From an uncultured Methanosarcinales archaeon (GTDB taxonomy: Archaea; Nanobdellota; Nanobdellia; Woesearchaeales; CAYVYK01): a stretch of DNA of 64,000 bases. A program made the translations under genes and the position numbers. Below, piece after piece: positions 8,891 through 55,606 of this stretch. The notes beneath the pieces are model-generated. The model had not been told where the DNA came from and ran no database searches. It saw nothing but the letters and a program-made list of their open reading frames with translations. The stretch lies in NCBI GenBank assembly GCA_964455675.1, contig CAYVYK010000002.1, forward strand, positions 7,791-71,790, in the 5' to 3' direction. The first letter of the stretch is position 1; each line of letters opens with the position of its first letter.

Positions 8891-8988
8891 GTTAGAACGT
8901 GACGGATTATATTCATCATGCAAGAAAAGACAACTGAAAAGAGGACCAAACCCAAAAGGATTTATAGGATCTCTCCATAACAGGAATA

Positions 8989-11396: not shown

Positions 11397-11822
11397 ATGC
11401 GTAAAGTACTTGTGTTTGGAACTTTTGATATCGTTCACCCTGGACACATGTTCCTCCTACGTAAGGCACGAGAGGGAGGTAATTATGTGACCGCAGTCAT
11501 AGCTAGAGACAAAAACGTGAGGAAGATTAAAGGTCATCCGCCGATCAATAAGGAACAAAAGCGTATTGAGGTATTGAGAAGCACCCACCTGGTACACGCT
11601 GCGATCCTTGGGGATTTGGATGACCCGCTTAAAATTCTTGAGAAGTATCGACCTGATATCATTTATTTGGGTTATGACCAGAAGCATTTTGTGCCTGAAC
11701 TAGAGGCCTATCTCAAGCGAAAGAAGATGAAGACCAAGATTCTCAGGGTGGCCGCCTACAAACCCAGAATATACCATGGTGCTAGGTTCCGACGGGGTCT
11801 ACCGATGGAGATGTGCGCGTAA
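11397..11822 (+). CDS. ribL: FAD synthase (archaeal RibL-type cytidylyltransferase-like nucleotidyltransferase)
   Basis: GTFDIVHPGH (HxGH), VIARDKNVRKIKGHPPI, PDIIYLGYDQ closely resemble the M. jannaschii RibL pattern. Confidence 0.7.
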   Translation: MRKVLVFGTFDIVHPGHMFLLRKAREGGNYVTAVIARDKNVRKIKGHPPINKEQKRIEVLRSTHLVHAAILGDLDDPLKILEKYRPDIIYLGYDQKHFVPELEAYLKRKKMKTKILRVAAYKPRIYHGARFRRGLPMEMCA

Positions 11823-12497
11823 GTTTGCGATTTTTCCGAAGTGATATGTTTTATCGTGCACAATGAATATATCCAGCATGTTTGCGTCCTTTACAAAGGG
11901 AGTTTTAAAATCATCTGACAAGAGGTTGCGACCTTCAGCGAACGCGCTGAATGCAGGCATCATGATAAGATGTCGTTTCCGATACATCCCAACGGCAAAA
12001 CACTTGTATCGTTCATGCTTGCTTCCCTCAGTAAGTTCTATTGATGGATGTTCATGACCTATGATTACAGTCTTCACATCTGAGGGTATCTCTTGTGGCT
12101 CCTGATCACCATGTAATACGAGGACGTCCTTCATGTGTAGCTCATTAACGGTTGATACGTTTCGCTTACTTGCGATTGGAGCAAGTATCACATCATGGTT
12201 CCCTTTCACGATAGTGATTTCCTTATCCTTGAAGGAGTCAAACAGGGCGATCAGGTCTCTCCATTCTAAAGGCAGGATGCTTCCAAACTCGTGTTTCACG
12301 TCACCGTTCAGAATGAGCCGTCGGAATGGAAGGTGTTTGAACGCTTGAAGCTCTTTCAGTGTGAGGTGGGTGTATGGTGTAAGAATCCCTCGTTTGCTCA
12401 ATGATTCCTCATATCCCAGATGGATATCTGACACAATGAGTGCATCATGACAAAGGAGTGCTAAACCAACAGTCTGGATACCTGGAAAAAGTTCCAT
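11799..12497 (-). CDS. Metallophosphoesterase (calcineurin-like)
   Basis: Ordered motifs SDIHLG, LNGDVKHEF, GNHD, LHGDQE, IIGHEHP. Confidence 0.75.
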   Translation of the reverse strand: MELFPGIQTVGLALLCHDALIVSDIHLGYEESLSKRGILTPYTHLTLKELQAFKHLPFRRLILNGDVKHEFGSILPLEWRDLIALFDSFKDKEITIVKGNHDVILAPIASKRNVSTVNELHMKDVLVLHGDQEPQEIPSDVKTVIIGHEHPSIELTEGSKHERYKCFAVGMYRKRHLIMMPAFSAFAEGRNLLSDDFKTPFVKDANMLDIFIVHDKTYHFGKIANLRAHLHR

Positions 12498-14630: not shown

Positions 14631-15635
14631 ATGCTCGGAGAGTATATGCAGAGGTACTGTCTCGGAATTGAGAGCACTGCGCATACGTTTGGCGCAAGTG
14701 TTGTAACTTTTGATGGTAGGGTAGTATCCAATGTCAAGCATAGTTATACGACGAAGAAAGGCGGCATGATTCCATCGCAGGTGGCTGAACATCATATTCT
14801 CGTTGTTGATACTGTAATTGCTGATGCTCTTGTGAAAGCTTCCATTTCGTTACATGATATCAGCTTGCTCGCATTCTCACAGGGCCCTGGCATGGGTCAT
14901 GCGCTAAACATTGGAGCATGGACAGCACGTGCAATAAGCATACTTAGGGGAATTCCACTTATCGGCGTGAATCACTGTATTGCTCATCTTGAGATTGGCA
15001 GAGCCATCACGAAGGCGCAAGATCCCGTGCTACTGTATGTTTCGGGTGCAAACACTCAAGTTATTGCATATGATGGGGGCAAATATCGTATTTTTGGGGA
15101 GACTCTCGACATTGGCGTTGGGAATTTTATTGACTCCTTGGCTCGTGAGTTGGGCCTTGGATTTCCAGGCGGTCCGGAAGTGTACAGACTAGGATTGAAG
15201 GGCAGGAACTACATTGAATTGCCATATTGCGTCAAAGGAATGGATGTCAGCTTTGGTGGGATACTCACGAACATCAAACATAAGATCCATGAAAAGAAAT
15301 TCAATCCGGAGGATCTTGCATATTCCGCCGAGGAGACTGTGTTTGCCATGCTTCTTGAAGTAAGTGAGCGTGCAATCGCGCACTGCGAGAAGACCGAACT
15401 ACTCCTCGGTGGCGGTGTTGCTTGCAACATTCGATTCCAGGAGATGGCAAGGGAGATGTGTAAATCACACGGGTGGAAATGCTACATTCTGCCAAACGAA
15501 TATAATGTTGATAATGCTGCCATGATCGCTCTGACTGGTGTGATGATGCACAATAAAGGCATTGTGACGAAATTGACAGATAGCGAAGTGAGGCCATACG
15601 AACGTACTGACGACGTAGAAGTTAAATGGCGTTAA
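14631..15635 (+). CDS. kae1: tRNA N6-adenosine threonylcarbamoyltransferase Kae1 (KEOPS catalytic subunit), not fused to Bud32
   Basis: CLGIESTAHTFGASVV and HCIAHLEIG Kae1/TsaD metal-binding His motifs; 334 aa. Confidence 0.85.
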   Translation: MLGEYMQRYCLGIESTAHTFGASVVTFDGRVVSNVKHSYTTKKGGMIPSQVAEHHILVVDTVIADALVKASISLHDISLLAFSQGPGMGHALNIGAWTARAISILRGIPLIGVNHCIAHLEIGRAITKAQDPVLLYVSGANTQVIAYDGGKYRIFGETLDIGVGNFIDSLARELGLGFPGGPEVYRLGLKGRNYIELPYCVKGMDVSFGGILTNIKHKIHEKKFNPEDLAYSAEETVFAMLLEVSERAIAHCEKTELLLGGGVACNIRFQEMAREMCKSHGWKCYILPNEYNVDNAAMIALTGVMMHNKGIVTKLTDSEVRPYERTDDVEVKWR

Positions 15636-15907
15636 TCCGCGGCAAATAGCCGCGAGTCATGCACATCAAAAACTCCGATGCGTGCTCCTGCGTCGAGCCA
15701 CCCGTGCGCATAGTTCACGGCTGCAAACGCATTGACATAATCACCTTTGTTCTTAAAGTGTCTTGCGTCGGACAAGTAACGTTCAATCATGTCAAGAAAC
15801 TCTTCGCGCGAGATCTTTGTTCTATTTTTGCTTTTACGTGCCAAGTCCAATGCCTGTGTCGTCAATTCCAGGTACTTTTGCAGTTTTTCTTCAGTTATTT
15901 CTCGCAT
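15632..15907 (-). CDS. Small conserved hypothetical protein (helical)
   Basis: 91-aa ORF convergent with kae1 with 4-nt overlap; no motif recognised with confidence. Confidence 0.4.
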   Translation of the reverse strand: MREITEEKLQKYLELTTQALDLARKSKNRTKISREEFLDMIERYLSDARHFKNKGDYVNAFAAVNYAHGWLDAGARIGVFDVHDSRLFAAD

Positions 15908-15910
15908 GGT

Positions 15911-16570
15911 TCACTCCCCGAATCGACACATGAGTTCTCCGATACCAGTGAATGTGGCTACTTGATACCCAAGTTGTCTAGCGACATGTATGTGTCTTTC
16001 CTGGTCATCCACAACGAGCGTCCTATTCGGTGGAACACCTAGTTCAGTCGTTGCACGATGCCACATGTGTTCATCTGGTTTTACATATCCCACCATCCAT
16101 GAATAGATGACACAGTTTGGTTCAAAAAACTGATCGAGATCCCATGATGGTTGCAACACCTCATAGGGCGAGGCGTTGGAAAGTAACGCCAGACGGTATC
16201 CTTTTCGATGAAGATGTTCAAGCATCTGATGCACCCCTGTGATAGGCTGAGACCCAGGCCTTTCACCTGTTCCAATGAGGCTTTCGCGCAACGTATCAGC
16301 GACGTAGTGGATGTTCTGTTCGGTCGCGGGTATGTGAAATGCACCAAGGAAATATATTGCTATAATCTCCGGGGTAGTGAGCTGAGGCGACAATTGAAGT
16401 GCTTCTTCGTATGTGCGTGGGTATTCATCATGTACTGGTGATGCCTTTCCATAGCTAAAAGGTCGCTCGATCCCAAAGTGATCCCTCAGTCGTTCCTTTA
16501 CACTGAATGGTTTTCTCACGAGAGTATACCAGAGGTCAAAAATGACTGCTTCGATTGGCTCGTCAGACAT
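15911..16570 (-). CDS. HAD superfamily hydrolase
   Basis: Motif I VIFDLWYTLV (DxD-type), later conserved Ser/Lys and DD motifs. Confidence 0.7.
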   Translation of the reverse strand: MSDEPIEAVIFDLWYTLVRKPFSVKERLRDHFGIERPFSYGKASPVHDEYPRTYEEALQLSPQLTTPEIIAIYFLGAFHIPATEQNIHYVADTLRESLIGTGERPGSQPITGVHQMLEHLHRKGYRLALLSNASPYEVLQPSWDLDQFFEPNCVIYSWMVGYVKPDEHMWHRATTELGVPPNRTLVVDDQERHIHVARQLGYQVATFTGIGELMCRFGE

Positions 16571-16816
16571 TATTTAACGTAACTACACGAGATTATAATA
16601 AAATTGTGTTGTTTTTTGAATTTCCCACTTCTGGCGAGATTTTCAATCCAAAGAGACATCACGGCGGTCTGCCAGCTCAGATATCCAGAAAGTATTTCTT
16701 AGTCACAAAGACCTCACGATCAAAACACCAAAATGTCAAATGAGTCCCTAGCTTTCAAAAAACTACAGTTCTTTTGTGTACCCTGGCCTTCAAGATAGAA
16801 ATTAGCGGGGCCTTTG

Positions 16817-16951
16817 TTATTCCACAAGAAAATGACGGAGCGCTGCCTCGACAACCTGGCTCTTGTTCTTAAGGGACCGATCAGCTCGTATCTTATCGCG
16901 GATTTTGTAGATAAGTCCCTCTTCCACTGATACGCTCATTTTGAATTTCAT
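16817..16951 (-). CDS. 44-aa ribbon-helix-helix-like small protein (MKFKMSVSVEEGLIYKIRDKIRADRSLKNKSQVVEAALRHFLVE), CopG/antitoxin-like
   Basis: Intact ATG..TAA ORF below the ORF-track size cut-off; beta-strand then two helices pattern with AALRHFL typical of RHH proteins. Confidence 0.35.
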   Translation of the reverse strand: MKFKMSVSVEEGLIYKIRDKIRADRSLKNKSQVVEAALRHFLVE

Positions 16952-17053
16952 GAATATAAAGAAAAGGCCTTCCTTTTATAAATGTATCGTTTATGTAACC
17001 ACTACATGGTGGTTAATAATACCCAGCGAAAGGGAAAAAATTCTCGCCAGAGC

Positions 17054-18325
17054 TTATACTCTGTAAGGACTTCCGCCCCACTTGCTAGCATGGCCTTCCG
17101 ATGACTCGGTCGTCGATCTGCGTTCCCGATGCCCGCGGTGCTCGTATCCCCCCCGAAAGGATTCTCGCCGCTCTCCTCGTATTGGTCTTCGTTCCCTTGA
17201 GTCACCACCGGTATGGAAACTAAGCCGGGGAAATGAGGGTTTGGGTAGTTCTTTGACGGTCACGTCATACTTGCTGAGAATATCTCTAAATGCCTCATGA
17301 TCGCGCTCGCTGAGAAGTGTTATGGCTTTTCCAGACTGACCCGCTCTTGCAGTTCTGCCCACGCGGTGGATGTATTCCTGCGGGTCTTTTGACAGATCAT
17401 AGTTGATGATGTGGCTTACATCCTCGATGTGGAGTCCACGAGCAGCGACGGCACTTGCGACAAGGATGGCGATCTTATTGTGATGGAAATCCTCGATTAC
17501 TTTAAGTCGGCGGGTCTGACTGAGTTTCCCGTGTATCATCTCAGCGCTAAATCCATACCTTCGAAGATTCCGACCAACAATATCCACGGTCGTGCGCGCT
17601 GAACAGAAGATGATCACCCTGTTCGGTTTCTCGGTCTTTAACAGATGAACGAGGATGGAAAATTTCTCGTGCGGCTGCACGCAATAGAAGTACTGCTTGA
17701 GATATTCCTCTTGAACGTACATGCTAGTCTTCACTGTCTCCGGATCATGCATGTATCTTTGTTTCAACATCTCAATCTCTTGGGATATCGTTGCACCAAA
17801 GAGGAGCAACTGGCGATTTTCCGGTGTATGGTCAAGGATTTGTGTTATGTCCTCTATGAATCCCATCTCAACCATCTTGTCCGCTTCATCAAGTACAACG
17901 CAAGAAATACGGGATAGGTCAATCGTCTCTCGCCCGATATGATCAAGCAACCTTCCTGGAGTACCGACTACAATGTCTGCAGTTGTCAATTTTTGTATTT
18001 GTGGTTCAATCGCGACGCCCCCAAATATCGTAACGATTTTGCATGGGGTGTACTTCGCGAGTTTTGCGAGGTCCTGTCCGATCTGAACGACAAGCTCCCT
18101 CGTAGGCCCCATGATTAGGTATTGGGGCCCTTTTCCTCCCTCTAGATGCTCGAGAATGGGTATTCCAAACGCAGCAGTCTTTCCTGAACCTGTCTTGGAT
18201 ATCCCAATAACATCCTTTCCCTCCCTGATCAGGGGAAGCGTGAGCTCTTGAATTTTTGTTGGTTTTGTTATGTTCAGTTCGTTGAGTGATTTGATTAGTT
18301 CTGGCTTTAGTGTTTTGAATGGCAT
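17054..18325 (-). CDS. DEAD-box ATP-dependent RNA helicase with C-terminal Arg/Gly/Glu-rich tail
   Basis: Q motif, Walker A GSGKTAAF, PTRELV, DEAD-type VLDEADKM, HRVGRTARAG; start taken at MPFKTLK, not the upstream extension. Confidence 0.9.
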   Translation of the reverse strand: MPFKTLKPELIKSLNELNITKPTKIQELTLPLIREGKDVIGISKTGSGKTAAFGIPILEHLEGGKGPQYLIMGPTRELVVQIGQDLAKLAKYTPCKIVTIFGGVAIEPQIQKLTTADIVVGTPGRLLDHIGRETIDLSRISCVVLDEADKMVEMGFIEDITQILDHTPENRQLLLFGATISQEIEMLKQRYMHDPETVKTSMYVQEEYLKQYFYCVQPHEKFSILVHLLKTEKPNRVIIFCSARTTVDIVGRNLRRYGFSAEMIHGKLSQTRRLKVIEDFHHNKIAILVASAVAARGLHIEDVSHIINYDLSKDPQEYIHRVGRTARAGQSGKAITLLSERDHEAFRDILSKYDVTVKELPKPSFPRLSFHTGGDSRERRPIRGERRESFRGGYEHRGHRERRSTTESSEGHASKWGGSPYRV

Positions 18326-18498
18326 GTATTCACCTGGAACCAAGGTCTCCTTGGGAAACAGAATGAGCGATTCGCCTCTGTTTCGTCCTTCCGACACAAA
18401 CAAAACGGCATGTTCTTTTAAGCTTTGCGATATTCCTTTTTACTGTCGACGAAAAGTGCTACCCTGGTTAAATACCTGTAACCGCTGACCACAGATGC

Positions 18499-19494
18499 TC
18501 AGACACCAAGAAGAGTGCGCACATCACCTGCGACCCTCGATGGTAGCATTGCGACTGCATCCGGGCGATCGAGGAGTCTCATGGCATGTTGAAGCTCATC
18601 CCCTCCATACCGTGATCCGATGTAGCAGAGCACTCCTGCAATGCATGATCTGGTCGGTTCCCACTCTTGTGAGTTTAGAAAAGCGATAAGATTGGCAGGA
18701 TCTGCACGTACAGAGAACAATTGTCTGGAGAATTGGTCGCTTTCGCGAAACATATCTTGGAGCTTGCTTGGTGTTTCATCTATCTCAACGACGTATACAC
18801 CATCAAAACCTTTGGGTCCCACAATTGGGAAGTAATTCAGTCCGATGAAGTGCTTTGCGTCAATTGCTCTCGCCATTTCACCAGTCTCGTTAAGCATGAT
18901 TCGGTCTATAAAGTCTGGAACGGAGATATGATTATCATGGATGTCTCTCTCGTTTGAAAACCCGCCGAATGCAGAGATCTTCTTATCTCCAAAGTCTCTC
19001 TTGTTGCCAAACAAGGCGAAATGACCGCCATCGCACACTGGAAGAATCCAAGATGCAAAGGGATTGTACCCAAGCGTATTTGCTGTTTGGGTATCATGCA
19101 TCTGTGTATCCGCACGGTTGAAATGCTGATTGTACCGGAAACCTGCTGTAAATACACCCGCCTCGTATCTCGTGTGCGGATACTGGGCGCCATTGTCAGC
19201 GAACGAATGGAGGTAGGCGATAGGAGAATCCTTTGCTGTGGGCCTTTTTGCACAAAATTTCTGCCATGTATCGTTTACTCTCGCTTCCACGTCCACAGGA
19301 ACCTCTGGTGCCACACGGTTAACGGTGATGGTCAGGTGATCTAATGTCAGTGGGTGGTGGAAGTCCCATATCTGGATTGGAGAAAGATATGCCATTACTG
19401 AGAGAGTTACTTTTCTGAATAAAAGGGTTTCTATGCCTGAAAACTTATAAATACTGGATAATTGTCGAATGAAGTATGACATTCCAAAAACCAA
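18499..19494 (-). CDS. Hypothetical protein
   Basis: 331-aa ORF; N-terminus overlaps the hisS start on the other strand, so the true start is probably internal (for example MAYLSP). Confidence 0.45.
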   Translation of the reverse strand: MVFGMSYFIRQLSSIYKFSGIETLLFRKVTLSVMAYLSPIQIWDFHHPLTLDHLTITVNRVAPEVPVDVEARVNDTWQKFCAKRPTAKDSPIAYLHSFADNGAQYPHTRYEAGVFTAGFRYNQHFNRADTQMHDTQTANTLGYNPFASWILPVCDGGHFALFGNKRDFGDKKISAFGGFSNERDIHDNHISVPDFIDRIMLNETGEMARAIDAKHFIGLNYFPIVGPKGFDGVYVVEIDETPSKLQDMFRESDQFSRQLFSVRADPANLIAFLNSQEWEPTRSCIAGVLCYIGSRYGGDELQHAMRLLDRPDAVAMLPSRVAGDVRTLLGV

Positions 19495-20717
19495 AAGGGA
19501 CAGAGGATTTCTTTCCCGAGGACATGAGTATCAGGCAGCAAGTAGTCGGAAGGCTACGCGCTACTGCAGAACGTTATGGCTATGGAGAAGTGAGTTCTCC
19601 TGCTTTTGAAAGCCTTCAACTGCTCACCGAGAAGGAAGGCGAAGAGATAAGGGGCCAGATTTTCACCCTCGAAAAACGCAGCAACGAGGAGTTCGGTCTA
19701 CGTTTTGATTTGACTGTTCCCATGGCTCGGATGGTCATAGAGAGAATTCGTGCAATGCCTAAACCGATTCGGTGGTTCATGATTGATAGAATGTGGAGGT
19801 ACGAGAAACCACAGGCAGGAAGACTAAGGGAATTTTATCAGCTGAGCGTGGAGCTTTACGGTGCAGAAGGCGCTGATGCTGATGCAGAACTCATAAAGCT
19901 CGTTATCGCATGCCTTGAGAGTTTTGGGCTCACATCTCGTGACATTAAAGTCCGGATCAACAACCGAAAACTGCTCGAGGGACTTTTGCGCGAGAAGGTT
20001 GGAAAAGACGATGTCCTTGATCTGATTCCCGTGATCGACAAGTTCTCCAAATTATCCAGGGAGGATTTCAAAGCGGAACTGTCAAGATTCACAGAAGATA
20101 GTGATGCGATTATTGAAATTCTCGAGACGGAAGACATCTCGAAGATAATGACCAAGAATCAGCTTGCCAAGGAAGGTTTATCCGATCTCCAGAGTATATT
20201 TCGTCAGCTCCCAGCAGGATATGCAGTGTTTAGTCCATCGACCGCGAGAGGCCTCGCGTATTACACAGGGACGGTATTTGAGGTTTTTGACACAAAGGGG
20301 AAGTATCGCGCAATTGCCGGTGGTGGAAGGTACGATAATATGATTGCACTATTCAAGGGACCAGCAACTCCGGCAAGCGGGTTTGGACTAGGGATTACGA
20401 CGTTGACTCTCCTCTTGAAGGATCTGGGATTATTACCAAAACCAAACGTAAGTCCTGATTATTTTGTGGCAGTTGCCAATTCTGAATGCCGAGAAAAGGC
20501 GATGCTCATCGTCGAAAAAATGAGGAGGAGATGGTCCGTTGTCGTCGATATTTCCAACCGGAACCTTAAGAACCAAGTGTCGTATGCAGGTTCGATTGGC
20601 GCACGAAAGCTCATCGTTATTGGTGACCAGGAGATCGCCTCTGGCGTACTCAAGGTTAAAGACATGCAGACCGGCGCTGAGACGGAACTCCAGATAGAGA
20701 GTATGAGTAAAACGTAA
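19476..20717 (+). CDS. hisS: Histidine--tRNA ligase
   Basis: Class II aaRS motifs; N-terminal KPKGTEDFFPED, RYDN, GGGRYD signature of HisRS. Confidence 0.9.
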   Translation: MTFQKPKGTEDFFPEDMSIRQQVVGRLRATAERYGYGEVSSPAFESLQLLTEKEGEEIRGQIFTLEKRSNEEFGLRFDLTVPMARMVIERIRAMPKPIRWFMIDRMWRYEKPQAGRLREFYQLSVELYGAEGADADAELIKLVIACLESFGLTSRDIKVRINNRKLLEGLLREKVGKDDVLDLIPVIDKFSKLSREDFKAELSRFTEDSDAIIEILETEDISKIMTKNQLAKEGLSDLQSIFRQLPAGYAVFSPSTARGLAYYTGTVFEVFDTKGKYRAIAGGGRYDNMIALFKGPATPASGFGLGITTLTLLLKDLGLLPKPNVSPDYFVAVANSECREKAMLIVEKMRRRWSVVVDISNRNLKNQVSYAGSIGARKLIVIGDQEIASGVLKVKDMQTGAETELQIESMSKT

Positions 20718-20777
20718 CCACTGATATGTAGTTAAAACACGGAACGTTTATATAGGAGTATCCGCATAACTCGACTC

Positions 20778-21488
20778 ATGACAAGAAGGCCACCACTCGT
20801 CTATTCGTATCAAGTGGATTTCATGCAAGGAATTCTTGAGCAGGAACTCCTCCATCCAGTCCTTGGGTATCATCCATGCAAATGGATCGTGGGTGTTACA
20901 GGAATTTCACCAAAATCTGTACTACGTTTTCAACATGATCAGGATATGCCCTCGCTCACAGTCCCTCTTGATGCGTCAATCACGTTAAAGGGAAAGAATG
21001 GTACATATGAGAATCAACCCACACTTGAAAGAATTGAGAACACAAGACCAAGGATACGGTATGATTCTTACCTTGACGCGCTCATGGATCCTAACTTCTT
21101 GGGATTTACGCTTAGATCCTGGCCCGCCCATCATCCACCAGAGTCACCGTATGAGCCTGAGGACGTAGGTTCCCTAGTGGCGCACTGGGATTCTTTCAGG
21201 GACGCAAACGGCTACTTGTACTCAAGAGTGCATTTTCACGTGGCAGATATTATCGGAACCGATAAGGATAGAAACATGCGAGAAAGTACGATATTCAAGC
21301 CAGAAAAGCAGCTTCTAATCCCAGTAAAAACCGGTCAAGATGCGTGTGTTATTGGTACATATGTGGACATTACTGAAGATGAAGGATATGTTTTTCCTTG
21401 TGTTTCCTGCACAGAGATTCGGGAACAACTGACGGAGGGGGGAAGGGCAAGGATTGGACTTGCTGCAAGAGTATACCGCGTGGGTTAG
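20778..21488 (+). CDS. Hypothetical protein, translationally coupled to the downstream FHA gene
   Basis: 236-aa ORF; stop 8 nt before the FHA gene start; no recognised domain. Confidence 0.5.
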   Translation: MTRRPPLVYSYQVDFMQGILEQELLHPVLGYHPCKWIVGVTGISPKSVLRFQHDQDMPSLTVPLDASITLKGKNGTYENQPTLERIENTRPRIRYDSYLDALMDPNFLGFTLRSWPAHHPPESPYEPEDVGSLVAHWDSFRDANGYLYSRVHFHVADIIGTDKDRNMRESTIFKPEKQLLIPVKTGQDACVIGTYVDITEDEGYVFPCVSCTEIREQLTEGGRARIGLAARVYRVG

Positions 21489-21496
21489 GTAGAATC

Positions 21497-21955
21497 ATGA
21501 CAAACGCAATCCTGCAATGGGACAACGAGCGGTTTACATTGGATCCACTCATAGCCCGTCCGTACTGGACGATTGGCCGTCATATGCACAATGATCTGAC
21601 GCTTGAGAACCGACATGGACTCCTGCAACTTTCAAGGTTTCACGCCTCCATCATCCACATACAGCATTCTAATAGTCATCCGGGTGGATTCTACATCGGT
21701 GACCATAGTTGCCATCAGACAGGTATTGTGTATCCAGATGGAAGAAGAGATGTAGTGAAGCAGTTCTTTCCTCAGCACGGAACGTTTAGAACTGATAAAG
21801 AATTATCCTGTGCACTTAGTGAGGAATTGACACACCAAGGAAAAAACCTTGCGGACCGCCTTACTTATCTTATAGATCATTCCGTACTTGAGCTTCCATA
21901 CAGTTGTGGCCCGATGGGTTACCAGATCCGTTTTGTCCTTCAATCACAATCTTGA
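21497..21955 (+). CDS. FHA (forkhead-associated) domain protein
   Basis: YWTIGRHMHNDLTL...LSRFHASI...YIGDHSCHQTGIVYPDG matches the FHA core pattern (G-R ... S-R-x-H ... D-x-S ... G-T); start at ATG 21497, the TTG-started extension is unlikely. Confidence 0.6.
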   Translation: MTNAILQWDNERFTLDPLIARPYWTIGRHMHNDLTLENRHGLLQLSRFHASIIHIQHSNSHPGGFYIGDHSCHQTGIVYPDGRRDVVKQFFPQHGTFRTDKELSCALSEELTHQGKNLADRLTYLIDHSVLELPYSCGPMGYQIRFVLQSQS

Positions 21956-23403
21956 TCGCTAGTGTCCAGGAACCCGTCACAATCGTTGTCTTTTCCGTCG
22001 GAACAGGTGATCTCGGTGCCATATTCAAAGAATCCACACAGCCCGCCAATGTCTATGCAGAGTTCATTTTGATTTTTTTGGCCATCATGGCAGGTCGCCC
22101 CTGTTGATGTTGTGTAGAGATACTTGAATATCTGGGCGTCATCTTCCGCCACATAGAGTTCGCAGTCTTTGATAGTGATACCTTCCTGATCAGTCCCTGG
22201 GATACTGCGATAATCAGCGTGATACAGGTAATATGTGCCATCCACATCGAATCTTCCAATCTTGTCTTCGTTATCCCAGACAGCATATAGTTTGTTTTCT
22301 CTTGGCTCGAAGTAGAGGTCTGCCAAATCTGCATAAGCAGTATCATAGTGTGTGATTTCCGTCCATGCCGTGGATGTCTCACTTGAAATTATTGGTAAAT
22401 CAAGGACATAGACTGTTCCCTTTCCTGCGGTTCCAGCTTGATCTCCAACAAAGAACACACCACCTTCCGGATGGGAATCTAAATGATAAAAAGTTAAAGC
22501 TTCCATTCCATTCTGCGTTCCGTAGCTTCCGAGGATAAATTCTCGTCGTATCGTACCTGTCTGAATATTAAATTCAACAATACTTGCTGGATCCTGCTCC
22601 TTTAACAAGTACAAATAATCAGATGTTGGGTCCGCAAGTGCAATGCCCTCAAGATCACGGCCTCCAAGGGACCAGGAACTGAGGAGAACTCCTTCTTCAC
22701 TCATCTGGTACAGGTATCCATCATCTTCCACCCAAAAAAGAGATTCTGTACCCGGATGCCAAACAATACCGCTTGGTTCGTCCTGATGTGCTCCTGAACC
22801 GCTGAAGATAAGCGACCCCCCTCCAACTTCAGGAAGAGTCCCAGGTTCACAGGAAGGCTCTTCAAGCACACAGAGCTGTGTGCGCACCTCACATGTGGAT
22901 GTACACACAAGGTTTCCGCCATAAAAGCCGTACGACTGGCATGTCGCATCACCAAAATCGGTTCCGTCACACGATTCTGCCCCCTGTTGTATTCCATCCC
23001 CGCAGAGAGTTACCATGGGTCCACAAAATCCATTGCTGCATCCAGTTCCTGTTTGACAGTCAAACACCTCACTCGCTACATTGTCACGCCGACAGTAGTA
23101 TTCCCTGACTCGAGTCGCCGAAACACAAACATCCCGAAACAAGGTTGTACCTGTAGACATGCTGACCATTCCATACTTTGTGATATCAATTCCGTTATCG
23201 GTATCAGTGCAGAGCAGCGTAGTCATGGGTACTCTCTGCATCGGTAAGGTTTCACTAGCTGTTTGGGGTTGTGAAGTCTTTGTCGTACGGAGGGCATCGA
23301 CTGAAAATACCTGCACAACATGGCCGGTTACACTAGGCTCACCTGTTGAAACGAGTAGTATGCAAACGAATAAAAGGATTAACGGAAAGTAGATTTTCTC
23401 CAT
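21940..23403 (-). CDS. Secreted beta-propeller-like (phytase-like/SdiA-regulated-like) protein with Cys-rich modules
   Basis: Signal peptide; Cys-rich repeats (CGDGIQQGAESCDGTDFGDATC); C-terminal CSDGKDNDCDGFLDTSDQDCD metal-binding-like motif. Confidence 0.5.
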   Translation of the reverse strand: MEKIYFPLILLFVCILLVSTGEPSVTGHVVQVFSVDALRTTKTSQPQTASETLPMQRVPMTTLLCTDTDNGIDITKYGMVSMSTGTTLFRDVCVSATRVREYYCRRDNVASEVFDCQTGTGCSNGFCGPMVTLCGDGIQQGAESCDGTDFGDATCQSYGFYGGNLVCTSTCEVRTQLCVLEEPSCEPGTLPEVGGGSLIFSGSGAHQDEPSGIVWHPGTESLFWVEDDGYLYQMSEEGVLLSSWSLGGRDLEGIALADPTSDYLYLLKEQDPASIVEFNIQTGTIRREFILGSYGTQNGMEALTFYHLDSHPEGGVFFVGDQAGTAGKGTVYVLDLPIISSETSTAWTEITHYDTAYADLADLYFEPRENKLYAVWDNEDKIGRFDVDGTYYLYHADYRSIPGTDQEGITIKDCELYVAEDDAQIFKYLYTTSTGATCHDGQKNQNELCIDIGGLCGFFEYGTEITCSDGKDNDCDGFLDTSDQDCD

Positions 23404-23484
23404 TGGACTGTCTTAACCTTTTCTGGTATATAAAAGTTGACAGACTAAAAAACTAGTGACAAATATGAGAGGATAATAAAGTAA

Positions 23485-23498
23485 TCACTAAATAGTGA
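23485..23498. promoter_or_regulatory. Perfect palindrome TCACTA-AA-TAGTGA in 415-bp divergent intergenic region
   Basis: Seen directly; flanked by a second CTAGTGAC copy 35 nt upstream. Confidence 0.25.
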
Positions 23499-23818
23499 CT
23501 ACAACATAGAAAGATTTATATACTAGTAATCCTAATTAGTTACTTAGGGGTGACAATGGCAAATACCTCTCCTGAAACCTTCATCGGTTTCTACACCTCC
23601 GTGGCCAAAGTTGCCCCGCCCTTTTCAAACAAGAGGTGAAATGATGACAGCACTACCCAAATGCTTGGAAATCAAGTTGGAACATGCTCCGCACCTGAAC
23701 GCAGAGAAGGTGGATAAGGTAGTCAGTGCACCGAGCCAAAAGAGCGATGATACTTACTACAATGGGAAGGCCGTGGCGTGTGCTCCTTCAAATCCGATTT
23801 TTTGGCGGTGATTAGTAT

Positions 23819-24817
23819 ATGATTGCGAAAAGCATTCAGATCCTGGAGTCTTTGCAAACACCCTCGGGCCTCTGTTCAGCGTCGAAACAGAGCGTGAACA
23901 CAGGCTACAATAGGGCTTGGATTCGTGATAATATTTATGAGTCTCTGGGTCTTGAAGCAGCGAAGCGACACTGGGCACTTAAGCGTATTTACCGGGCGAT
24001 TTTTGACGTGCTCCTCAAGCATGAAGGCAAGATCGATGCCGCAATTCAATCAAAGCCCCAGCATCACTATGAGTATATTCACCCTCGGTACGATCCGCAT
24101 ACGTTAAGCGAAATCTGGGAGGAGTGGGGAAATCGACAGAATGACGCTATCGGCGCATTTCTGTATAAGGTTGGCGATCTAGAATCAAAAGGTGTGAAGG
24201 TTATCAGGGATGATGATGATCGCCGAATTCTGCAGAAGCTTGTATGGTATCTTGATGCCATTGAGTATTGGCACGATGAGGATAATGGTGTCTGGGAGGA
24301 GAATCTCGAAATCCATGCATCATCTGTTGGTGCCTGCGTCGCAGGACTCCGTGCTGTTCGGAACCTCGTTGACGTTCATCCAGATCTTTTAAGGAAAGGC
24401 GAGGAATCACTAAATGACCTGTTGCCATACGAATCGACTACAAAGGACGCAGACCTTGCACTCCTTAGCCTAGTCTATCCGTTCAATGTTGTTTCCGACT
24501 CGCAGCGCGACGCCATTTTAAAAAATGTGGAAGAGAAGCTCGTCCGTCAGCGAGGCACTATCCGCTATGTTGGTGATAAGTACTATAACCGCGATGGAGA
24601 AGCAGAATGGGTAATGGGATTTCCATGGCTTGCAGTGATCTACAAGTCCTTGAACCGCCCTGACAAATATGCTCACTATATGAGAAAGACAATCGAATGC
24701 GCTAATGCAGAAGGAGAACTGCCCGAATTGTATTATGCGAACTCCACAGAGTGCAACGAAAATACTCCTCTTGGCTGGACGCAAGCACTCTTTCTCGTCG
24801 CTGCGATGGACGAATGA
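23819..24817 (+). CDS. Glycoside hydrolase family 15-like (glucoamylase-related) protein, short form
   Basis: YNRAWIRDN and NGVWEEN (GH15 general-acid Glu region) motifs. Confidence 0.6.
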   Translation: MIAKSIQILESLQTPSGLCSASKQSVNTGYNRAWIRDNIYESLGLEAAKRHWALKRIYRAIFDVLLKHEGKIDAAIQSKPQHHYEYIHPRYDPHTLSEIWEEWGNRQNDAIGAFLYKVGDLESKGVKVIRDDDDRRILQKLVWYLDAIEYWHDEDNGVWEENLEIHASSVGACVAGLRAVRNLVDVHPDLLRKGEESLNDLLPYESTTKDADLALLSLVYPFNVVSDSQRDAILKNVEEKLVRQRGTIRYVGDKYYNRDGEAEWVMGFPWLAVIYKSLNRPDKYAHYMRKTIECANAEGELPELYYANSTECNENTPLGWTQALFLVAAMDE

Positions 24818-32069: not shown

Positions 32070-33077
32070 CTACCGTGAAAGTCTGGCGATGAGCTCGTCC
32101 GCATCGGTGTAGATTCGCGTGCCAACCGGAAGTGCTCTCCAGTTGCGAACCTGCTCACCGGTCATGTGACCTTTGGGAGTGATGTAGAGAGTGTTTGCGT
32201 CGTCGTATTTCGCGCCCACCAACTGATACGCAGTCTGACCTCTGCCTAGGACGTATTCATGATGAGCAGGTTCATCTCCTGAAGCCAGAAAATTGTACTT
32301 GATGTTCGACCCGGCTTTGAGCGTAATTGTTCGTCCGTCCGCAAGTTTGAGAGTTCCATTTTTTTGAGGGACTGCCGTTTCAGGGACAATCCTTCCAGCT
32401 GCAACATCAGGGTCTTCGTCAGCCCAGTGGACTCCTAGCTTCTGCATGTCAACCGAGTTGGCACATTTTTTCCCTCGTTGCCTGAGTATTGCAGTTCCAT
32501 TTTTTAATTTTACCCGTTGTTCGTACACGCGTACTTGGCTGTGTTTAAGCACATGATCGTCATCCACTTGGTATCTTGTTTTGAGCTCTCCGATGAGCCA
32601 TGCTCCGCTAGCGTATTGTTCAGGCGTCAATTCCTTTGCATACGTCCCTTCAAATTCTATTCCAAGAGATCTACTATTCAGATATTCCTGCCCGTTCCAA
32701 ACGCTTGGTCCTGCGTGCTCTGCTCGTTCACGTTCTGGTACGATGGAGTAGATGGTTCCGTCTTTTCTGACAAGGTATTGAGCAGAATGATTATTTCGTA
32801 GCGTTTCAAGCGCGCCCGAGAAACCGCCTTCAGTAGTATGAATGATGATGTATTCTGTCGTCTTTCGTACCTTGCCGGGATTCTCCGCAACTTGGTGCGA
32901 TCGAACGATGTCAGTAAGCGGTGCGATAGCGTTGAGTGGCTGTGCTCGAAGTGGGGATGCGCTCCGCATGCTGTGTGATACAACATAGGTGACTCCCGCA
33001 GTCCCAAGAACCGCTGCAAGTATCCCGACTCCAATTTTAGATTTCCATAGACTGTTATGGAGAGGTTCTGACATCAC
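32070..33077 (-). CDS. N-acetylmuramoyl-L-alanine amidase (Amidase_2/PGRP domain), membrane-anchored, with C-terminal extra domain
   Basis: N-terminal TM anchor; IIIHTTEG ... AEHAGPSVWNGQEYLNSRSLGIEFEG matches the zinc-amidase PGRP/T7-lysozyme core; extra ~150-aa C-terminal region. Confidence 0.7.
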   Translation of the reverse strand: MMSEPLHNSLWKSKIGVGILAAVLGTAGVTYVVSHSMRSASPLRAQPLNAIAPLTDIVRSHQVAENPGKVRKTTEYIIIHTTEGGFSGALETLRNNHSAQYLVRKDGTIYSIVPERERAEHAGPSVWNGQEYLNSRSLGIEFEGTYAKELTPEQYASGAWLIGELKTRYQVDDDHVLKHSQVRVYEQRVKLKNGTAILRQRGKKCANSVDMQKLGVHWADEDPDVAAGRIVPETAVPQKNGTLKLADGRTITLKAGSNIKYNFLASGDEPAHHEYVLGRGQTAYQLVGAKYDDANTLYITPKGHMTGEQVRNWRALPVGTRIYTDADELIARLSR

Positions 33078-47384: not shown

Positions 47385-50300
47385 TTATGTCACAACCACT
47401 TGCAGTGGCCTGCCATCGCGGGTGTTGCCGTTGTTGTCTTCTGCGCGGAATACGAGGTCATACGTCGCTGCTGCCCCACCAGTCATTTCGCTGAATGCAA
47501 ACTGGTATAGTACCTCTGTGCTTCCAGAGGGTGACTCGCGCTTGATCCCGTCTCGGACGACGGATTCCTTTCCTGCTGAATTTACCGTCAGTTTGACTTT
47601 TTTGACGCCGCTTGGCGAAACGCCCTGACCGGTATCTCCAAAATCAACCACCGGGATATCAATATAATAATCTTTACCTCGGGATACTTCATATTTGTCC
47701 TCTTTGGTCTCTACGAGTTTGTATTGGTCCCCTTCCTTGTAGTACATGGTGGTAGTTCGTAGTTCGGGGGGTGTGACGTCTCTCTTGTCGATCCCTCCGG
47801 CTGTTGTCGAACCGATTGGTTCTGCGCAGATTGCCGAGAATTGGTACTCGAACTTCTGCGCAGTGCCGAGGTATTGCGCGACGCTGTTCTGGTTTGGTTC
47901 GATCGTCCCGTCTGCTGCCTGAATTCCTTCATATATCGTGAACGTTCCAGTCCACGCAACTGGCCTATTCTGATCACACTGCTGAGTTCCCTGCTCGGTC
48001 TGGGTGACTGCTCGGCCGACGAGAACGCTTGCCGTCAGTTTGCCAAAGTCGTTTATTGACGTTCTCAGTGTAATAATGGATTCTCCGCAGTAGTATGTCT
48101 TTCCATCCCCTCTGCAGCGAATCACTGATCCACTTGGTTCAAATGTCTGCACTCCAGTGTTTGGATTCTTCACAAAGTCTCCTGCGATGTATTCAAGATA
48201 TTTCTCTCCGTTCGGTCCAAGCTCTTCAGATACCTGCACTTTCATCGTCGATGAACATTGAACAGGTGTCACGATGCCAAGGTTGTTCACTCCCTCGATG
48301 ACGCATGTGCTGCTGAGCGTGCCAGGTCCTGTGGTGAAATCTGTTCGTGATATCGGAGGGAATGATCGTGTGAGAGGAATGGTTTCACGCCCGTTGAAAG
48401 CGAGGACCTCTGGATTGTTGTAATTATTGTAAATGGATAATCCGTTCTGGTTATTCACATTCACGACGAGATATTTGGTGTACGGACACTCGCTTTCGGA
48501 AACGCCCTCGCATCCTGCCTCATCTGGCATTTTCTGGCTGACCTCGACATCAAATCCAAGGGAATCTCCGATCCTGAATGGATCACCTAGGGCCTTTGGC
48601 CTTCCAATGATGCGCGCCCAATTCTCAGTGCCTGTCTGGAATCCGCAGCGATAACTTAGTGTTGCGACGTCAAATCCGCAAATGCTTGGTGGCGGCGCTC
48701 CTTCCTGTCCAATGTCGCATTCCACGCTGTCCTTGACTGTTTGGTCTTTATTGTCCTTGTACTCCCATGTGAGTCGTGCTTTGTTGTATCGATAGGGCAT
48801 GGTTGTTGTCCAAAAGATGTCCCCTATGTCCTGTTCGCTCAGAACATCTCCTGCTTTCATGTATCCGCCCTTGATGATTGTGGTTTGTGGTGTTCCGCGT
48901 TGGCAGTCGCATAGTCCGTTCTCGAATCCTTCGCTCGCCTTGCATTCTGGTGTTGCGCTGCATTCCATCTCAAGGTACCATCGTATGTCCGCTCCAGCGA
49001 CAAGTCCCGCTCCAAAGTGATACGTCCATGTTGTCATTCCTGGTACTGGCCTTGAGACTTGATTGAATGACATGAATCGCCGCTGGCATGGATAAAGGAG
49101 TCCTTGGCTTTTCACTGGAACAGGGAATCCTTCGCCCTCGACGAGTCCTTCAACGTCGAGATCCCAAACACCAGTAAACGCCCATAAGCAGATCGCGTGG
49201 ATGAGCCGTTTTTCAACAAACAGCGTTTTATAGAGTGTCGTTCCGCCATAGCGATTTGTTATTGAGTCTGACACGCTGTTTCCCGCGCTCGTGAGGGCAC
49301 CGAAGAGATTTCCCATCGTGTCGCTTCCTCCTCGCTGCAGTCCTGAGGCGTACTTCTCCGTGAAGCAATTGATCATGTCCCAGATGAGATCACAGATGTA
49401 GACGCTGAGGACTGCCCTGCAGATGCCTGCGCTTCCGTCTCCTGTCTGGATGATGCTGTTAAAGCATGTCTTAACGGCTGTGAGAATTGCCTTCCACAGC
49501 CGCAGGTAGCTCGTGATTGCAGGCAAGCATACGCACTGGATGCTGCGAAGAAGACTGCTAGTTGGATCAACAATGTATTCCTGGTCCGTTATTCCAATTT
49601 TTGCGTAAATCCGCTCCCACACGTCGTCCGTTTCCTGCCGGTTGATCATTCTGCCATCGGACGCGCACCCGATGACATCCGCGTGGAACTTCTCTTTGAG
49701 TGAAAGCTTGAGCTGGTCGCGTGTCCTTTGATCCGCGTCGTCTTTTGGCATTTCAAACATATCGGTAACGTCCTGGACTGGCCTGAATACGAGGTACGAG
49801 TTTACGGGGCTATCCCCCATGCTGCCAGTTTCATAGTCACTTACACCTGCATTCTCGACTTCTATTGCGCGAAGATCCTTTCGTTCCACGATATAGCCTC
49901 GGTGGATGTAATACAGTTTGTCCTCCGCTGCCCTGCTTCCTCCGATCGATTCTGCGAAGTCTTCAGCGCTGATGATGCGGTAGTAAATGTTTCTGTCGTC
50001 ATTATACGAAAAGACATGCCCTCCAGTGCACGGATATGTTTTTCCCCGGATTTCTCGGGGTTCTCCTTCCGCTTCCCGCATGGCTGACTCTTTTCCAGCT
50101 TCGTCAGGGTAGAATATCACATTTCCAAGGAGTGTGTTCACAGCTCGTCCAGATGGAGAGTACGGGTCCGATACAAGCGCTCTGCTTTCTGATCCATATC
50201 GGAAGTAGGTGTTGACGAGTTGTGGTACCGCCTTTCCATCAGCATCACAGAATCCAGCGACGGCGTTCCAGAGTTTGTTGCAGTCTCCCTCGTTTGAACG

Positions 50301-53300
50301 GTCGTTCGCCTGTTCTGCGGCGAGGCATTTTGATTCTTTCAGCTCGTTCATGATGACGCATGCCGAATTCCAGGTGTTCATGTATTCTGTGCTGCAGCAT
50401 TTTTCGTTTCTTTCGTGAAGTTTACTGCAGTCAACATCCGTTTCTGCGTTTGCCTCACCAGCAACAGTTCCTGCAACAGTCCCGCTTCCTCCGGCTGCGT
50501 TTCCTTTGCCGTTTTGTTGATAGTAATTGTACTGCTTGATGATCTCGTTATAATCATCCGTCGGTACTTCCGCGCAGTCGCTTCCAGCTTTGATAATTGC
50601 TCCATTCCCGCCTCCAAGGTTGACATCAGTGTTCCTTTTATTGCGCTGGTTGTCCTTGATGTATTTCTGGAATGTTGGCGCGCTCGGACAGAACATGCGA
50701 TCGCAAACCCAGTGAGAGAGCTTTTCGAATTTCTGCCTGGTCTCGATTGCCCCTTGGCATGCAAGGCAAGCTTCATTCTTCTGTTTTGATCCTTCATTAT
50801 CTGCTGGATAGACAACATTACATTGTCCCGTCGCTGCGACATCCTTCTTGAACACTCCGCCAGTAAACATTTGGAGGATGTTGCTGTATTCGCAGTTCCA
50901 GCTCTCTTGGAAAGCTAAGACAAACTGGAATAGCCATCCAAAGAGGCACGCGTAAAGCGTGTATTTTTGCACGGTCGCGAGTGGCTTGAGTACTTTGTCT
51001 ATTAGCTCAACCGCTTTTTCTAGGACCTGCACCGATGTCTTCAGGAAGTTGTTTGGGATTACGCTTGGGGGAATGCGTTTGTCTATCGGTATTTCGAGCA
51101 GCCAGCACTGTCTTTGGATGATATTGTTCACTCGGAATCCTTCTTCAGTCATGTCAAGGTATGCTGCCTGGAAGTTCTCGTCGATTTTTTCTTCGATCGT
51201 GAGTTCCATGACGAGTGGTACCCTGATGCATCCTGTTCCCTGGAGGATGCATCGGTCCTCATGGAGCATGCTGATGTTTCTTTCCTTTTCGTAGATTGTC
51301 CAATTCTTTCCTTCACGCGGCTGCTCATTGCCCTGGTAGGACGGATCATATGCGCGGATGTTGACATTGATATACCCGGCCGTGTAGTCCTTGTTCCACA
51401 TTGATCGCACGGTGACTTTATCCGTGTCATAATGGTTTTTCCAGTTTTGCGATAGCGTTTGGAACGTGATCCTTGGTTGCCTTGTGATTTTGTATCGCGG
51501 TGTTGATGTCTGTCCGTAGCTCGTCTCGTTCTGTATGCTTGCCGTCGATGAGAGGTTAACCGCAAATCCTATTTTTGCAAGGCCTTCGAGGATGAGCCTT
51601 GGATTGAGCATGGAGGGGGTGGGTTGTGATATGACAACGTTGAACCAGTTGCCATACCCGCACATCGCGTAGATAATGTCTTTTCGCTCTTCAGCTTCAA
51701 GTCCAGACGTTCCTCGCGCAACAATTCGAACATGATTCATCCATGCGTCGGAGCTCTCGATAAGTCCTTGGACTGATTCTCCTTCTTCTCCCGTTTCTGA
51801 GCTGAACTTGATGTCTCTTTCGAGGGGGATGTGCATTGTGAATGAGTAGTCCTCATGGGTTACGGTAACGTTGACAGGACTTGTCTTGTTGTTGACATAC
51901 GCGTAGAGCGTTGCCTTTTTGTCGAGCTTTCCTCGGACATAGATATCGTTCACATAGCTTGGAGTCAATTCATCAAGGTTGATCTCAACGAATTTTGGCG
52001 CCTGATTTTCAAACACGACTTTCTTTTCCACGGTCACTTTGTTTCCTGCTCGATCCTCGGCCGTGATGGTAACATAGTTCTCGCCCTGGCCCAGCGACAC
52101 CGACTGTGAGAAGTCGCCGCTCAGTGTGAGTTTTTGTGCTTGTTTGAATATCGAACAGGTGAGGTTGAACGTATTCGGCGTCCGGTTGAACTGCTGGCCT
52201 CCAAGAGGTGTTGTGATGATGAGCGACTCTGATAGGACACCTTCATTGCATGAGTCATCAATTGCGCTCACCTGGTACCGATAGGTAGATCCGGAATCAA
52301 CGAATGCGCCCGTATCTCGAAAGTTCGTCGTCCTCGTTGACGTGATCCTCATTCCGTTTCTGTAGATGACGTATTCTCGCAGGTCTTTCTCGGTGTTGCG
52401 ATCCCATCGTAATTCGATCGTGTTCGTGTATACCGTTCCGTTCGTCAGTCCCTTGACCCGTGCTGGTGCTTCTCTGTCTGCTTTGTTGATAACGTCGAAT
52501 GTTATCGTCGCGAGTTCATCCACACTTCCATTCACTGTTATTGCTTGTGTCTTTGCCGTGTCATTGATAGTTCCAATGACAAGCTTGGGAGGCCTGGTAT
52601 CGACGGTGACGGCGAACTCCTTGGCAAGTGTTCCGCCAAGTTGGTCGGTCGCTTCCACTTTAAGCTTATTCTCTCCTTCGTTGAGCATAATTCCGGCGAT
52701 CATGAAGCTTCCGTTCGAGTTTGATCGCACGGATCTGCGAAGTTGTCCTCCCATGAAGAATTTGACGTCGCTGTTCACTTTTGTCGTGCCGGTGACATCA
52801 ATCAATTTTTGGCTCATGAATGGTGGAAGCGTGACGTTCAGGAATGGCTGTACGGTGTCTTCTCCCGTGACAAGCGTTGATTCTGTGCTATTCGTGCATA
52901 CGTTTGCGACGCTGCATGAGCTCACGAGGTACTTGTAACTTTTCCCTTCCTGCAAGGAGAGGACGATCGCGTGCTGGAAAACATATCCTGGAGAGGTATC
53001 AGTGGTGTTTGCTTTCTCAATGCCATAGTACACTTTGGATGTTGCAGGAACATCGGTTGTCCAGCCGATTGTTGCGGTTGTCTTCGTCACACTTTGTATT
53101 TTGACATTTGTTACTTGTGGAGGGTTGAGATTTGGCTGCTGGGCCGTCGTGAAATGGTAGTTTGATCCGAGATTGTCAAGCGTAACGGACTCTCCTTGTT
53201 CGTCGATTCCAACAATCCTGTAGTAGTAGAGTGTTTGGCTTTCCAATGGCGAGAGGACGACGCTGTGGGTCGTTGATAACTGTGCTGATTCACCGATGAG

Positions 53301-55546: not shown

Positions 55547-55606
55547 GCGATTTTCCCTAGTTTCCCCGCTGGCTTTTTAAGAATGACAGTTTATATACTT
55601 TTCGAA

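Follow-up and report, generated by a model that had tools for sequence, protein, structure and literature searches.

FHA domains are uncommon in archaea (PMC6509490), as an earlier reading of the DNA described here, made without database searches (the sequence-only reading), had also held. The best-studied archaeal case is the ArnA/ArnB pair of Sulfolobus acidocaldarius, in which ArnA combines a zinc finger with an FHA domain and ArnB carries a vWA domain (PMC6509490, PMC5007285, PMC4858521). The two genes share an operon, and ArnA uses its FHA domain to bind the phosphorylated C-terminus of ArnB (PMC5007285, PMC6509490). Conserved Arg, Ser and Asn residues together with a structural His play the known roles in phospho-threonine (pThr) binding by FHA domains (PMC10470591, PMC5007285), and the Asn is represented by the essential N200 in St0829 and by the conserved N170 in SisArnA.

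Here we describe two adjacent genes, A and B, in a 64-kb stretch of archaeal DNA (the window), the second of which encodes a small protein that resembles the first part of an FHA domain. The window also encodes aIF2-gamma, Kae1, SRP54, exosome subunits, proteasome alpha and LonB, and the archaeal proteins nearest to its histidyl-tRNA synthetase (52-54% identity) come from sources that label them Candidatus Woesearchaeota or Nanoarchaeota. The host is a DPANN archaeon of Woesearchaeota/Nanoarchaeota-like affiliation, from a lineage that is poorly sampled; the collections searched contained no close relative of it, and a scan of genome contigs with hisS returned only bacterial genes at 30% identity.

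Organization of the locus

The sequence-only reading had placed an FHA-domain gene 8 nt downstream of a 236-aa gene that in turn neighbours hisS, and both the ORF listing and the sequence bear out these positions, the spacing and the neighbour. The locus comprises the following features, with positions given within the window:

19476-20717, plus strand: hisS, histidyl-tRNA synthetase (Pfam tRNA-synt_His, 1.6e-49), the upstream neighbour of A
20747-20754, plus strand: TATA-box-like element TTTATATA, 31 nt before the ATG of A, read directly from the sequence
20778-21488, plus strand: gene A, a 236-aa ORF (ATG at 20778, TAG at 21486-21488), an orphan without recognizable domain
21487-21496, plus strand: A-B junction, made of the last two bases of the TAG of A and the 8-nt spacer
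21497-21955, plus strand: gene B, a 152-aa ORF (ATG at 21497, TGA at 21953-21955), an orphan
21551-21721, plus strand: FHA-like segment of B (residues 19-75), with G27-R28, S46-R47-F48-H49-A50 and D69, and with Q74 at the position expected for the FHA Asn
21940-23403, minus strand: convergent gene for a 487-aa, probably secreted, Cys-rich, SdiA-regulated/phytase-like protein

A and B lie on the same strand with a gap of 8 nt between them (21489-21496), and 60 nt separate the stop of hisS (20717) from the start of A. hisS is not part of the A-B pair and has its own TATA-like element. At the other side, B and the convergent 487-aa gene share 16 nt at their 3' ends, so that the A-B unit ends here, and this convergent gene again has its own TATA element at -31. 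The NCBI-derived protein for B has a start identical to the ATG at 21497.

Of the 38 gene starts in the window, 13 have a TATA-like hexamer that begins between -34 and -24, compared with 1.1% of random positions. Judging from these sequences, first genes in this genome typically seem to be leaderless and to start about 25 to 30 nt after the TATA box, a geometry that A fits, and TTTATATA probably serves as promoter for a leaderless transcript of A and B. Within the 60 nt upstream of B there is no TATA-like element, and because the box stands at A and none at B, the two genes most likely form one operon and would be co-transcribed. B would then be translated by re-initiation or by means of a weak Shine-Dalgarno-like tetramer, AGGT (21487-21490), that lies 10 nt before its ATG; the other operon-internal genes of the window have GGAGG or GGTGA at -5 to -14. 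The 8-nt spacing and this weak AGGT at -10 are the two features that hint at translational coupling from A to B. Scans for sigma-70 promoters and terminators, using a model that is uninformative for an archaeon, gave background levels, and no structured RNA was found at 18000-24000.

Coding status of A and B and the search for relatives

A and B are real ORFs. Thirty shuffled windows contained no ORF as long as A (236 aa) and, per 64 kb, 0.57 that were at least as long as B (152 aa); chance would not be expected to produce ORFs of such length. In an independent Logan assembly of the same sequencing run (SRR12133404), two contigs cover 16347-23330 with five mismatches, and since none of these falls in A or B, assembly frameshifts are unlikely. 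A codon model trained on 24 genes of the window with Pfam support ranks the annotated frame first of the six for both A and B, and the scores are low, with a log-likelihood of 0.11 bits per codon for A and -0.017 for B compared to 0.08-0.36 for core genes. Both genes retain the coding-type pattern of GC1>GC3>GC2, with GC3 values of 0.41 (A) and 0.43 (B) against 0.51 in core genes. Their amino-acid usage is atypical in being poor in Lys, with Arg above Lys, and B is in addition rich in His (7.9% against 2.2% in core genes) and contains three Cys only (C72, C105 and C137) and no CxxC pairs.

Both A and B are orphans in all collections searched. Whether whole or in halves, A had no match in Pfam, NCBIfam, PHROGs or PADLOC and only noise among PDB sequences (E of at least 0.5). 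Remote-homology searches returned A only, and its AF2 structure prediction reaches a pLDDT of 31, in agreement with the earlier description of this partner as uncharacterized; nor has A, being without relatives in the collections searched, turned out to be a common housekeeping enzyme. For the two proteins together, tblastn within the window and the hisS loci of relatives detected no homologue, a word-seeded search of 5.8 billion clusters and a full phmmer pass of the concatenated A+B over 1.84 billion representatives returned self-matches only, and scans of metagenome contigs and IMG/VR viral contigs gave 0 matches for A and 0 for B, while tblastn of B against plasmids produced only noise. 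At each of the three nearest hisS loci that were inspected, the genes downstream of hisS are unrelated to A and B. Since no homologue of either protein was found, comparison yields neither evidence of selection nor a conserved pairing.

Two stretches of A ('GKNGTYEN' at 72-79 and 'LTEGGRARIG' at 218-227) were considered as traces of a degenerate FHA domain and rejected, given that 147 of 5,000 shuffles score equally and that hhalign assigns E=0.09 and a probability of 0.6%. Paralogy of A and B was likewise rejected (blastp of A against B, E=6).

A partial FHA match in B

The single Pfam match of B is PF00498 (FHA), with 20.8 bits where the gathering score is 20.7 (a margin of 0.1 bit) and an E-value of 5.3e-4 that includes the correction for 24,736 Pfam models. 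Residues 24-75 of B are aligned onto profile positions 1-44 of 67, where the full profile spans strands beta3-beta10 with NGT..vNG and L..GD.I.iG, so that the FHA assignment of the sequence-only reading passes the PF00498 threshold but does so with the first two thirds of the profile only. Residues 1-110 score 22.0 bits (E=2.2e-4) with equally partial coverage, and residues 77-152 alone have no Pfam match at E up to 5.

We compared B also to an independent FHA HMM, built from an alignment of 12 diverse plasmid proteins that a search with the GarA FHA domain had retrieved; 11 of them are annotated as GarA or FHA-domain proteins and one as an ABC transporter. The GarA sequence used for the search is 89% identical to an annotated Gordonia garA. 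This HMM scores B at 12.0 bits and places 19-IARPYWTIGRHMHNDLTLENRHGLLQLSRFHASIIH-54 on its GR...SRxHA columns, with 4 aa inserted. When B was shuffled 20,000 times with its composition preserved, 12 bits were never reached (maximum 8.4), and of the 397 segments of 60 aa or more from the six frames of the window, B alone matches, the next one scoring 2.4. Using hhalign, residues 21-73 of B are aligned at E=1.1e-3 with a probability of only 20% and with a second insertion, of 6 aa, before 'FYIGD'.

In these alignments, the conserved FHA Arg, Ser and His columns are filled in B by G27-R28 ('IGR') and S46-R47-F48-H49-A50 ('SRFHA'), so that R28, S46, R47 and H49 correspond to the conserved Arg, Ser-Arg and His of FHA domains. 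Of the residues of the 11-stranded FHA beta-sandwich, the Arg belongs to the beta3-beta4 loop and the Ser to the beta4-beta5 loop, while the Asn, with Gly/Thr, sits in the beta6-beta7 loop and completes the recognition of the pThr peptide. The core motifs attributed to B by the sequence-only reading are thus present as far as GR and SRxHA are concerned, but what it had called 'D.S.NGT-like' is D69-H-S-C-H-Q-T-G76, without the Asn-Gly of the NG(T) loop; an extended hhalign alignment of low confidence puts H73/Q74 opposite S-x-N-G. The C-terminal FHA strands are not recognizable in B (no second HMM segment), and phmmer of B against all PDB sequences returned nothing at E up to 10. A frameshift that would hide the missing half of the domain was ruled out, as the other plus-strand frames of 21400-22150 contain no FHA-like segment, and is countered also by the identical sequence in the independent assembly.

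A single-sequence AF2 model of B is poor overall (mean pLDDT 58) and has six beta-strands in residues 4-57 (pLDDT 63-76); a disordered stretch comes next, then helices at 84-127 and, at 142-150, one last strand. The strand layout modelled for residues 4-57 would fit the opening strands of an FHA sandwich. Foldseek searches of the PDB and BFVD with this low-confidence model gave no FHA match and nothing better than E=0.5. Taking profile matches and model together, the FHA-like stretch begins at about residues 4-24, and B probably contains an N-terminal segment of FHA descent.

Signalling context in the window

The sequence-only reading had seen no Ser/Thr kinase or PP2C nearby, and none turned up in our scans either: Some 55 ORFs spread over the 64 kb gave no match to the Pkinase, RIO (RIO1), ABC1, PP2C and vWA families. 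The only phosphoesterase-type match in the same 64 kb is a weak one to Metallophos at 11799-12497, 9 kb away. A Bud32 gene beside Kae1 (14631-15635) was considered and rejected, as the 127-aa ORF found there (15659-16042) has no Pfam match and a codon usage of non-coding type. That A and B might form a phospho-dependent signalling pair, as had been suggested, is a possibility, plausible only by analogy with ArnA/ArnB.

A candidate peptide-binding adaptor and competing explanations

We tentatively regard A and B as an orphan operon that is specific to its lineage, with a divergent FHA-like protein as its second product, which would serve as a peptide-binding adaptor. Transcription from the TATA box 31 nt before the ATG of A would give rise to a leaderless A-B mRNA on which B would be translated from an internal start 8 nt past the stop of A. 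B itself would be a small and fast-evolving protein with an N-terminal part (about residues 4-76) that is derived from the FHA fold or convergent on it. It would keep R28, S46-R47 and H49, the apparent counterparts of the residues that hold the pThr phosphate in characterized FHA domains, and would have lost the Asn-Gly loop together with any recognizable likeness in its C-terminal half (77-152). Most likely, B would then act by binding a peptide, probably a phosphorylated one, that belongs to A or to the target of A, i.e., as a peptide-binding and probably phospho-threonine-binding adaptor that either docks onto A or brings A to a phosphorylated target. This role is modelled on the docking of ArnA to its operon partner ArnB in Sulfolobus, and a gene for the kinase would lie in another part of the genome.

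It is possible, though rather doubtful, that B is of FHA descent but has lost pThr binding with the Asn, the insertions into its loops and the rebuilding of its C-terminal half. A and B would then be lineage-specific accessory proteins with a function unrelated to phospho-signalling, one possibility being a His-rich metal- or pH-responsive small protein with an unrelated partner. Such degeneration would account for a PF00498 match that stops at position 44 of 67, for the missing Asn-Gly loop and for the absence of a kinase or phosphatase partner from the 64 kb, and it fits with the nine His and one Cys that residues 29-73 of this His-rich protein place in the would-be loops of the binding face. 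However, B still has the Arg and Ser-Arg that touch the phosphate directly in characterized FHA domains, as well as the structural His (PMC10470591), a Gln at the position of the Asn retains the amide group, and the absence of a kinase covers a 64-kb window of a 205-kb contig.

We consider it unlikely that the resemblance arose by chance, with GR...SRxHA as a short-motif coincidence in a young or foreign orphan (B and perhaps also A) that, in the case of B, may be non-functional or barely expressed. Against such a coincidence stand an E-value of 5e-4 that is already corrected for all Pfam models, the score with the independent profile that none of the shuffles and no other segment of the window attained, and the extent of the match, which covers about 50 residues, has its motifs correctly ordered and is accompanied by modelled N-terminal strands. 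With its 152 aa, B also occupies the sole open frame, comes directly after a promoter-bearing gene and is identical in an independent assembly. What a fortuitous match would explain more easily is the Pfam score just 0.1 bit over the threshold, the hhalign probability of 20%, the lack of any PDB sequence match or structural match for B, its codon score below the range of core genes, the reduced GC3 of both genes and the lack of homologues among the 1.84 billion representatives; moreover, the chance-level 'GKNGTYEN' of A shows how easily FHA-like fragments arise.

Horizontal acquisition of the pair from a virus, plasmid or defence module and its insertion downstream of hisS seem improbable to us, because the atypical GC3 and amino-acid usage of A and B, a GC3 below that of core genes also in the orphan genes to either side (18499-19494 and 21940-23403) and a hisS neighbourhood that the nearest relatives do not share are countered by the lack of PHROGs or PADLOC matches, of IMG/VR contig matches, of plasmid matches for B and of any integrase family in the scanned ORFs, by the distance of 9 kb to the only tRNA gene, by an overall GC (0.46) equal to the surroundings and by the host-typical leaderless promoter geometry at A.

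Little more than speculation, and very improbable in its full form, is the idea of a minimal phospho-recognition or His-mediated metal- or pH-responsive module private to an unsampled DPANN lineage, in which B would be an FHA scaffold rebuilt with a Gln-for-Asn binding loop, His-lined loops and a helical insertion and would act together with a partner of wholly new fold, relying on generic Bud32/RIO-type kinases in a reduced genome without Hanks-type signalling.

If B is a working FHA module as in the adaptor that we favour, it would extend phospho-threonine reading to the DPANN archaea, which have reduced genomes and essentially uncharacterized signalling, and it would pair an FHA domain with a partner without recognized fold. 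As it stands, A-B joins the many orphan gene pairs that are specific to one lineage, here a poorly sampled archaeal one, and its function is without an anchor because conservation, structure and a nearby enzyme are all lacking. The pair is of practical use mainly as a caution: A half-domain FHA match at the level of the threshold should not become the annotation of a signalling system.

Comparison with known systems

B resembles canonical FHA domains of PF00498 (such as those of GarA/OdhI, Rad53 FHA1 and EmbR) in the order and approximate spacing of its G-R and S-R-x-H-A motifs, in a hydrophobic strand ending in Asp after SRxHA and in its beta-rich N-terminus. Unlike these domains, it carries 4 inserted residues between GR and SR and another 6 ahead of the 'FYIGD' strand, lacks the NG(T) loop and has no recognizable 'L..GD.I.iG' C-terminal strands, while about 45 extra residues are predicted, with low confidence, to be helical; by phmmer, it is unlike any FHA chain in the PDB. 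Bacterial clusters of FHA, Hanks-type kinase and PP2C genes, such as actinobacterial FhaA-FhaB-PstP-PknB or the kinase-FHA pairs of Streptomyces plasmids, share with A-B the arrangement of a small FHA-type gene beside a presumed partner, but A-B has no Pkinase, RIO, PP2C or PPP gene adjacent to it.

Compared to the ArnA/ArnB system of Sulfolobus, B lacks the N-terminal Zn-ribbon of ArnA (with no Cys before C72) and the Asn that is N200 in St0829 and N170 in SisArnA, whereas A has no vWA/MIDAS match as would be expected of an ArnB. The FHA-like gene is the second one of the A-B pair, which also differs from the Arn arrangement, and there is no sequence relationship between the two systems, with A and B matching only themselves in homology searches. 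What A-B and ArnA/ArnB have in common is therefore a matter of layout only: Both are archaeal and comprise a small FHA-type protein and its partner from the same (in the case of A-B, inferred) operon, with kinases that are encoded elsewhere or, for A-B, would be.

Genes flanking hisS

Outside the orphan genes A (236 aa) and B (152 aa, with a partial FHA match), two further genes without a housekeeping function lie close to hisS:

18499-19494, minus strand: 331-aa ORF, divergent from hisS (298 aa by the Logan gene call)
21940-23403, minus strand: 487-aa gene, convergent with gene B and overlapping its 3' end by 16 nt with its own 3' end

The 331-aa ORF is probably a further orphan, without any match in Pfam, NCBIfam, PHROGs or PADLOC, and combines a reduced GC3 of 0.47 with a codon score equally low as that of gene A. 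The N-terminus of the 487-aa protein is hydrophobic, and Cys-rich modules at either end flank a central match to SdiA-regulated/phytase-like beta-propellers (PF06977, 2.5e-7). Across all four non-housekeeping genes at 18499-23403, GC3 is 0.41-0.47 as opposed to 0.51 in the core genes and codon scores (-0.02 to 0.12) are below those of the core genes, while overall GC is unchanged. The region may represent a fast-evolving or acquired accessory block that is interrupted by hisS.

FHA-like motifs and histidines in genes A and B

Two short stretches of gene A are reminiscent of the FHA fold, with 'GKNGTYEN' (residues 72-79, 20991-21014) resembling its NGT loop and 'LTEGGRARIG' (residues 218-227, 21429-21458) its GD.I.iG strand, the two elements that are both missing from B. 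Statistically, this resemblance is at chance level (P ~0.03; hhalign E=0.09). The independent Logan assembly of the same sequencing run (SRR12133404) is broken inside gene A, where its contigs L008 and L021 overlap by merely 17 nt (21023-21039). Both contigs are identical to the window across A and B, and the break could stem from locally low coverage or from strain variation.

Residues 29-73 of B (21584-21715) hold nine histidines and one cysteine (H29, H31, H40, H49, H54, H57, H61, H70, C72 and H73), located in loops that would make the peptide-binding face in an FHA fold. Histidine accounts for 7.9% of B overall, compared to a maximum of 5.0% in the window's core genes, and the cluster might reflect a dependence on metal or pH.

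Promoters and translation starts

Throughout the window, a TATA-like hexamer starts 24-34 nt before the start codon at 13 of 38 gene starts (e.g., at 8961, 19445 and 20747 or, on the minus strand, at 23434, 26147 and 56895) but only at 1.1% of random positions. Genes inside operons have GGAGG or GGTGA between -5 and -14 instead, and because of this division the mRNAs of first genes seem to be leaderless in this genome, with Shine-Dalgarno motifs serving the internal genes.

Other genes of the window

14631-15635: Kae1/TsaD
32070-33077, minus strand: N-acetylmuramoyl-L-alanine amidase (Amidase_2, 9.4e-25)
within 47385-56866, minus strand: giant 2053-aa protein with Ig-like, fn3 and glucodextranase-B-like domains

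No recognisable Bud32 kinase is fused to Kae1/TsaD or encoded directly downstream, and a 127-aa ORF at 15659-16042 has no Pfam match and a codon usage favouring the opposite strand. N-acetylmuramoyl-L-alanine amidases cleave peptidoglycan, and the one encoded here, in the genome of a DPANN-type archaeon, could target the cell walls of bacteria. Downstream of the 2053-aa gene, in the same orientation, lie genes for 667-aa and 419-aa proteins without Pfam match, the latter with the top codon score in the window, and together the three genes (47385-56866) possibly form a cell-surface or attachment cluster.

The hisS locus in relatives

Directly upstream of hisS, two Woesearchaeota relatives share a conserved gene pair (L005, 5383-5941; L006, 5375-5936), which is absent upstream of hisS in the window. 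One gene of the pair encodes 109 aa and matches Fic weakly, and the other encodes 80-81 aa. The hisS product itself comprises 413 aa in the window compared to ca. 477-485 aa in many relatives.
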